64,000 bases of DNA from Tequatrovirus BCH953P4, in sequence record OZ035789.1. One strand, given 5' to 3'. Positions 42,351 through 42,806 of this stretch are shown piece after piece; within the stretch, counting starts at the first letter, position 1; every line of letters begins with the position of its first letter. Under the pieces are notes generated by a model, which saw nothing but the letters and a program-made list of their open reading frames with translations, was not told the origin of the DNA and made no database searches. The translations under genes were made by a program, and so were the position numbers.

Positions 42351-42806
42351 TTATTTTAAATCGTCTGCCCAATCGAGTTTAAGAGGCTCTTTGTATTCAC
42401 GATCTAATACGACCGGAATTTGTACATCACCGCTAAATGATAAGGGCCCAACATTATAAGACAATGTTATATGCGGTGTGTAATCATCAAAATCATGTGT
42501 AGCACCTAGTGCCCGCGCATACATGTGTCGACAGCGCAGATATTCAGAATCTAGCACAAGTACAAGAGTCGATCCATCTTGTGTTTTCCATACTTCTAAA
42601 TGTCCAGAAGAAGCTACTTCAAAACTTCCACTCGATGGAACATATGGAACATTTACTCTCGAATAACATATAGTCGAATGAATTTTTTCTCTAGGAACTG
42701 GATTAGGAACACGTAAAGAGCGCTGGAGTTCTTCCAGCGCATCAAGTGTTAATTCTGAAAACTTAGCTGCTACATAAAGACCCGTTGAAAAGTCTTTAAA
42801 TTCCAT
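42351..42806 (-). CDS. 57B: 2H-phosphoesterase family protein 57B (Acb1-type cyclic-nucleotide phosphodiesterase), 151 aa
   Basis: Two H-x-T motifs (HSTI, HITL) typical of the 2H fold; position next to 57A; T4 57B is the described anti-CBASS nuclease Acb1. Confidence 0.7.

Follow-up and report, generated by a model that had tools for sequence, protein, structure and literature searches.

Intact acb1 (gene 57B) of a T4-like Tequatrovirus phage, adjacent to an ip6 gene at the variable ip locus

The open reading frame (ORF) located at positions 42351-42806 on the minus strand of the DNA under study is, with a probability that we put at about 97%, acb1 (gene 57B in T4) from a T4-like phage belonging to Tequatrovirus. 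Its product belongs to the 2H phosphoesterases and corresponds to the anti-CBASS cyclic-oligonucleotide phosphodiesterase Acb1. The window, that is the whole stretch of DNA that was analyzed, comprises 64,000 nucleotides of Tequatrovirus BCH953P4 (sequence record OZ035789.1). The gene is intact (ATG start, stop codon included in the coordinates), the 151-residue product has the same sequence as the characterized T4 enzyme, with all the functional residues in place. The chemistry of the enzyme and its anti-CBASS effect in vivo are taken from the literature on the identical T4 protein. The gene was known before and the T4-like genome that carries it is ordinary; there is nothing new in the Acb1 finding, and the confirmed copy matters for annotation only.

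An earlier note, made from the letters of the sequence, had claimed that a 151-amino-acid ORF beside 57A contains two H-x-T motifs and encodes an Acb1-type phosphodiesterase. The ORF was recovered exact and intact, and its codons give exactly two such motifs, H43-S-T45 at 42672-42680 (minus strand, codons CAT TCG ACT) and H112-I-T114 at 42465-42473 (minus strand, codons CAT ATA ACA), equivalent to H44/T46 and H113/T115 of the T4 protein. When the protein was shuffled with its composition preserved, two or more HxT motifs were obtained in 433 out of 20000 shuffles (2.2%), so that the pair of motifs alone is only suggestive, a hint and not a proof. The identity of the protein as Acb1 is settled at the level of homology (Pfam, PDB entry 7T26 and T4 57B), not by the motif count. 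ORFs of 38-54 amino acids on the opposite strand within acb1 were also considered and rejected as chance ORFs, the conservation of the minus-strand protein being strong in this region; in the region of acb1, nothing listed for the plus strand had any support.

A match to the Pfam family PF23474 (Acb1) was obtained with a score of 202.7 bits, for a gathering score of 27 (E = 2.6e-60), residues 8-149 of the ORF being aligned on profile positions 1-144 of 144. The ORF also matched the Acb1 crystal structure deposited as PDB 7T26 (E = 4.1e-62), and the gp57B proteins of T4 (NP_049750.1) and T6 were both 100% identical to it over the 151 residues. The assignment to Acb1 made in the earlier note is thus borne out by the T4 identity, the Pfam family and the structural match. 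The same note had proposed an alignment with characterized Acb1 proteins as a check of the catalytic histidines. We aligned the window protein with six homologues sharing 28-68% identity with it, from Erwinia phage FBB1, a Krischvirus, an Acinetobacter Lazarusvirus, a Vibrio Schizotequatrovirus and Salicola phage SCTP-2, together with the 9Q2G protein. In this alignment of seven sequences (28-100% identity), which includes two crystallized Acb1 proteins, H43, T45, H112 and T114 were invariant, and both histidines and both threonines are therefore conserved down to 28% identity. The base-contact residues Y11, W73, F106, W146 and E140 were all found in the ORF, each number being one lower than in T4 (Y12, W74, F107, W147 and E141) as a consequence of the start codon.

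The 57B protein of T4 was discovered as a 3'3'-cGAMP-degrading enzyme by activity-guided fractionation and named Acb1 (Hobbs et al. 2022, PMC9117128). Its fold is that of a 2H phosphoesterase, its HxT/HxT tetrad consists of H44, T46, H113 and T115, and its ligand is held by stacking on Y12, W74, F107 and W147 together with E141, which reads the adenine (PMC9117128). Catalysis needs no metal and takes two steps, with a cyclic phosphate as the intermediate; the H44A substitution inactivates the enzyme, the H44A/H113A double mutant is inactive, and T4 without acb1 is restricted by CBASS operons (PMC9117128). In agreement with the latter result, the HIDEN-SEQ transposon screen in T4 found 57B to be dispensable on K-12 and depleted on a CBASS-expressing host (bioRxiv 10.1101/2025.11.20.689424). 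Compilations of transcriptome data place T4 acb1 mainly in the middle and late classes. As for the Panoptes defence, it was unaffected by the deletion of acb1 from T4, and over-expression of acb1 from a plasmid lowered colony formation in the Panoptes assay.

Based on its 68% identity to 7T26 over the full length, the window protein is predicted to fold as a compact 2H phosphoesterase that has a C-terminal lid. It would act as a small, metal-independent 2H phosphoesterase, able to bind the adenosine-containing cyclic di- and trinucleotides that serve as signals in CBASS (3'3'-cGAMP, cUA, cAAA), with the bases stacked by Y11, W73, F106 and W146 and the N6 of adenine read by E140. The enzyme would strain the ring and thereby promote attack of the 2'-OH on the 3'-5' bond, and acid-base catalysis by H43, T45, H112 and T114 would generate a 2',3'-cyclic phosphate intermediate and then a linear product. 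With the second messenger destroyed, CBASS effectors would not be activated and the infected cell would not abort the infection. A functional-looking acb1 predicts resistance to CBASS signalling that relies on adenosine-containing cyclic di- and trinucleotides.

The 2H superfamily, to which 57B belongs, also raises the question of whether the protein could be a generic LigT-like RNA ligase or cyclic phosphodiesterase with RNA ends as its substrate, as in tRNA repair, rather than a nuclease of immune signals. PHROG 755 bears the label 'RNA ligase', RefSeq records name 57B likewise, and a cluster of eight tRNA genes is located some 1.8 kb away from acb1. This name is however an annotation transferred at the level of the fold, with no assay behind it, whereas the identical T4 protein cleaves cyclic di- and trinucleotides and counters CBASS in vivo (PMC9117128). 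The pocket seen in the crystal structure is sized for cyclic di- and trinucleotides (PMC9117128). The protein may in addition have an RNA as a secondary substrate. We consider it very improbable that the protein acts on RNA ends instead of immune signals, and retain its identification as Acb1.

With respect to database labels, a 57B homologue is encoded in 1469 phage records, and most of those among the records listed are named 'hypothetical protein' or 'RNA ligase'; one of the records listed reads 'anti-CBASS protein Acb1' and two read 'putative phosphodiesterase'. Database annotation of 57B lags behind the characterization of Acb1 published in 2022.

At the nucleotide level, the acb1 gene of the window differs from that of T4 at four positions, which leave the 151-amino-acid protein unaffected. 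Three of these changes are synonymous and the fourth lies at the junction between 57A and 57B, where T4 has TGATG and the window TAATG, as does T6. The change from TGATG to TAATG converts the TGA stop codon of 57A into TAA and removes the first of the two tandem ATG codons of T4. Because this first ATG is absent, the ORF of the window encodes 151 amino acids and not 152 as annotated for T4 57B, which has one extra N-terminal methionine. The idea that acb1 has been silenced or is decaying after the loss of the T4 start codon is hardly credible: the first ATG annotated in T4 is indeed missing, but the next codon is itself an ATG, overlapping the stop codon of 57A as is classic for coupling, T6 shares the TAATG, 497 phage records carry the 151-amino-acid protein at an identity of at least 99%, and the other substitutions relative to T4 are all synonymous, which argues for purifying selection on acb1.

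The gene directly upstream of acb1 is 57A, coding for the tail-fibre chaperone (80 amino acids; 42806-43048, minus strand; Pfam GP57, E = 9e-51), whose TAA stop codon overlaps the ATG of acb1 as TAATG. On the strength of this overlap, acb1 and 57A probably share a transcript and are coupled in translation. Gene 1, encoding the dNMP kinase (Pfam DNMK, E = 2e-106), precedes 57A. The ORF called mechanically for gene 1 (43048-43812, minus strand) begins at a TTG, 13 codons upstream of an ATG that opens the sequence MKLIFLSG and that matches the 726-nt gene 1 as it is annotated in T4, T6 and FL08; judging from these annotated genes, gene 1 probably starts at 43773. A search of the window for the late-promoter motif TATAAATA returned 13 copies for 10.8 expected, which is uninformative; one copy is located at 43404-43411 (minus strand), within gene 1 and upstream of 57A.

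Downstream of acb1, a gap of 72 nt separates it from the next gene, ip6. A generic scan of positions 41300-44000 for sigma-70 promoters and terminators yielded 12 promoter-like sites for 11.3 expected and had no discriminating power alone. As it performed at the level of chance, it was replaced by a search for the T4-early-type promoter motif (GTTTAC-18 nt-TACTAT, with a TG just before the second hexamer). The window contains five sites matching this motif, each of them on the minus strand, for 0.03 expected by chance. One of them, a consensus match at 42309-42338 (minus strand), lies in the gap between acb1 and ip6; it had also been picked up by the generic scan, and T4 and T6 have nearly the same sequence there, with one variable position in 30. 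Another, an exact match to the pattern, is located upstream of trna.4 (42015-42044, minus strand), and around the second hexamer the two copies are identical over a 16-nt block, GGTAGTGATACTATTA. A larger segment (42260-42350, minus strand), which takes in the promoter block as well as the ip ORF's first ~20 nt, hardly varies among the window, T4 and T6, even though the genes found behind this block differ, with ip6 in the window, ipI in T4 and ip5 followed by ip6 in T6.

The ip6 gene (42045-42278, minus strand) encodes a putative internal (injected) head protein of 77 amino acids, which matches PHROG 8111 'internal virion protein' (E = 3e-51) and starts with the capsid-targeting leader MKTFKEFIAE (N-terminal, encoded at 42249-42278, minus strand). 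Such an N-terminal leader is common to internal proteins that are otherwise unrelated (PMC12373910, PMC3012670). The earlier note had placed an IP-like gene with its own early promoter immediately downstream of 57B. The presence of this gene holds, in view of the PHROG match and of T6 Ip6, which is 94% identical to the 77-amino-acid protein; its identity is Ip6 and not IpI, since T4 IpI resembles it in the first ~14 residues only. The promoter is likewise supported at the sequence level, as a putative promoter with a conserved consensus match. Searches of Pfam and PDB revealed no relative of Ip6, and the literature searched contains no mention of it.

Ip6 would be a separately promoted protein, packaged in the capsid, relieved of its leader by cleavage and injected. 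T4 Ip1, Ip2 and Ip3 are inhibitors, each directed against a specific type IV restriction enzyme of the GmrSD kind (PMC12373910) and, by analogy with these proteins, Ip6 may have a counter-defence role, for instance as an inhibitor of a GmrSD-like type IV restriction enzyme. We also put forward, very tentatively and while regarding it as rather unlikely, a joint proposal in which Ip6 would be the injected inhibitor of a GmrSD-type variant to which it is yet to be matched, the 57B-ip junction would form an exchangeable anti-defence slot, and the early promoter together with the first ~20 nt of the leader would serve as recombination anchors. If this were true, ipI, ip5 plus ip6, or ip6 alone could be swapped beside a fixed acb1. 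The function of Ip6 and a cassette-like behaviour of the ip slot next to acb1 belong to a theme already recognized in the T-even literature.

Beyond ip6, the minus strand carries trna.4 (41801-41986), trna.3, trna.2, an ORF of 174 amino acids and then eight tRNA genes. The 174-amino-acid ORF (40608-41132, minus strand) lies between trna.2 and tRNA-Gln and matches PHROG 2290 (unknown function), with no Pfam match; T4, T6 and FL08, otherwise the closest phage, have only a gap of about 97 nt in its place. When the stretch 40500-41450, which contains this ORF, was used as a query, 251 phage records gave a single match that covered 80% or more of it. The tRNA cluster (39163-40521, minus strand) consists of the eight genes Arg, Met-CAU, Thr, Ser, Pro, Gly, Leu and Gln, and is interrupted, at the position of T4 segB, by an ORF for a GIY-YIG endonuclease of 221 amino acids (39243-39908). 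The tRNA called Met(CAT) by ARAGORN occupies the place of the tRNA-Ile annotated in T4.

Compared with known phages, the locus is 99.5-99.7% identical to those of Tequatrovirus BCH953P2 and Escherichia phage FL08, which identifies the window as a segment of a Tequatrovirus genome. The order gene 1, 57A, 57B is kept in T4 and T6 and, among more distant Straboviridae, in Krischvirus, Lazarusvirus and Schizotequatrovirus. Outside the T-even phages, the Acb1 protein of Erwinia phage FBB1, crystallized in the apo form (7T26) and with 3'3'-cGAMP (7T27), shares 68% identity with the window protein over the whole length, including the HxT/HxT tetrad and the C-terminal lid region, whereas two of the stacking aromatic residues are conservatively replaced (W73 by F and F106 by Y). 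The neighbourhood in T4 is the same as in the window, with gene 1, 57A, 57B and then an ip gene, and so is the intergenic promoter sequence downstream of 57B, but the ip gene that follows is ipI in T4 and ip6 in the window. T6 carries ip5 and then ip6 at this locus, where the window has ip6 alone. The leader reads MKTFKEFIAE in the window, MKTFKEF in T4 IpI and MKTYQEFIAE in T6 Ip6, and the Ip6 of the window thus resembles the Ip proteins of T-even phages both in its common leader and in its location at the variable ip locus just after 57B.
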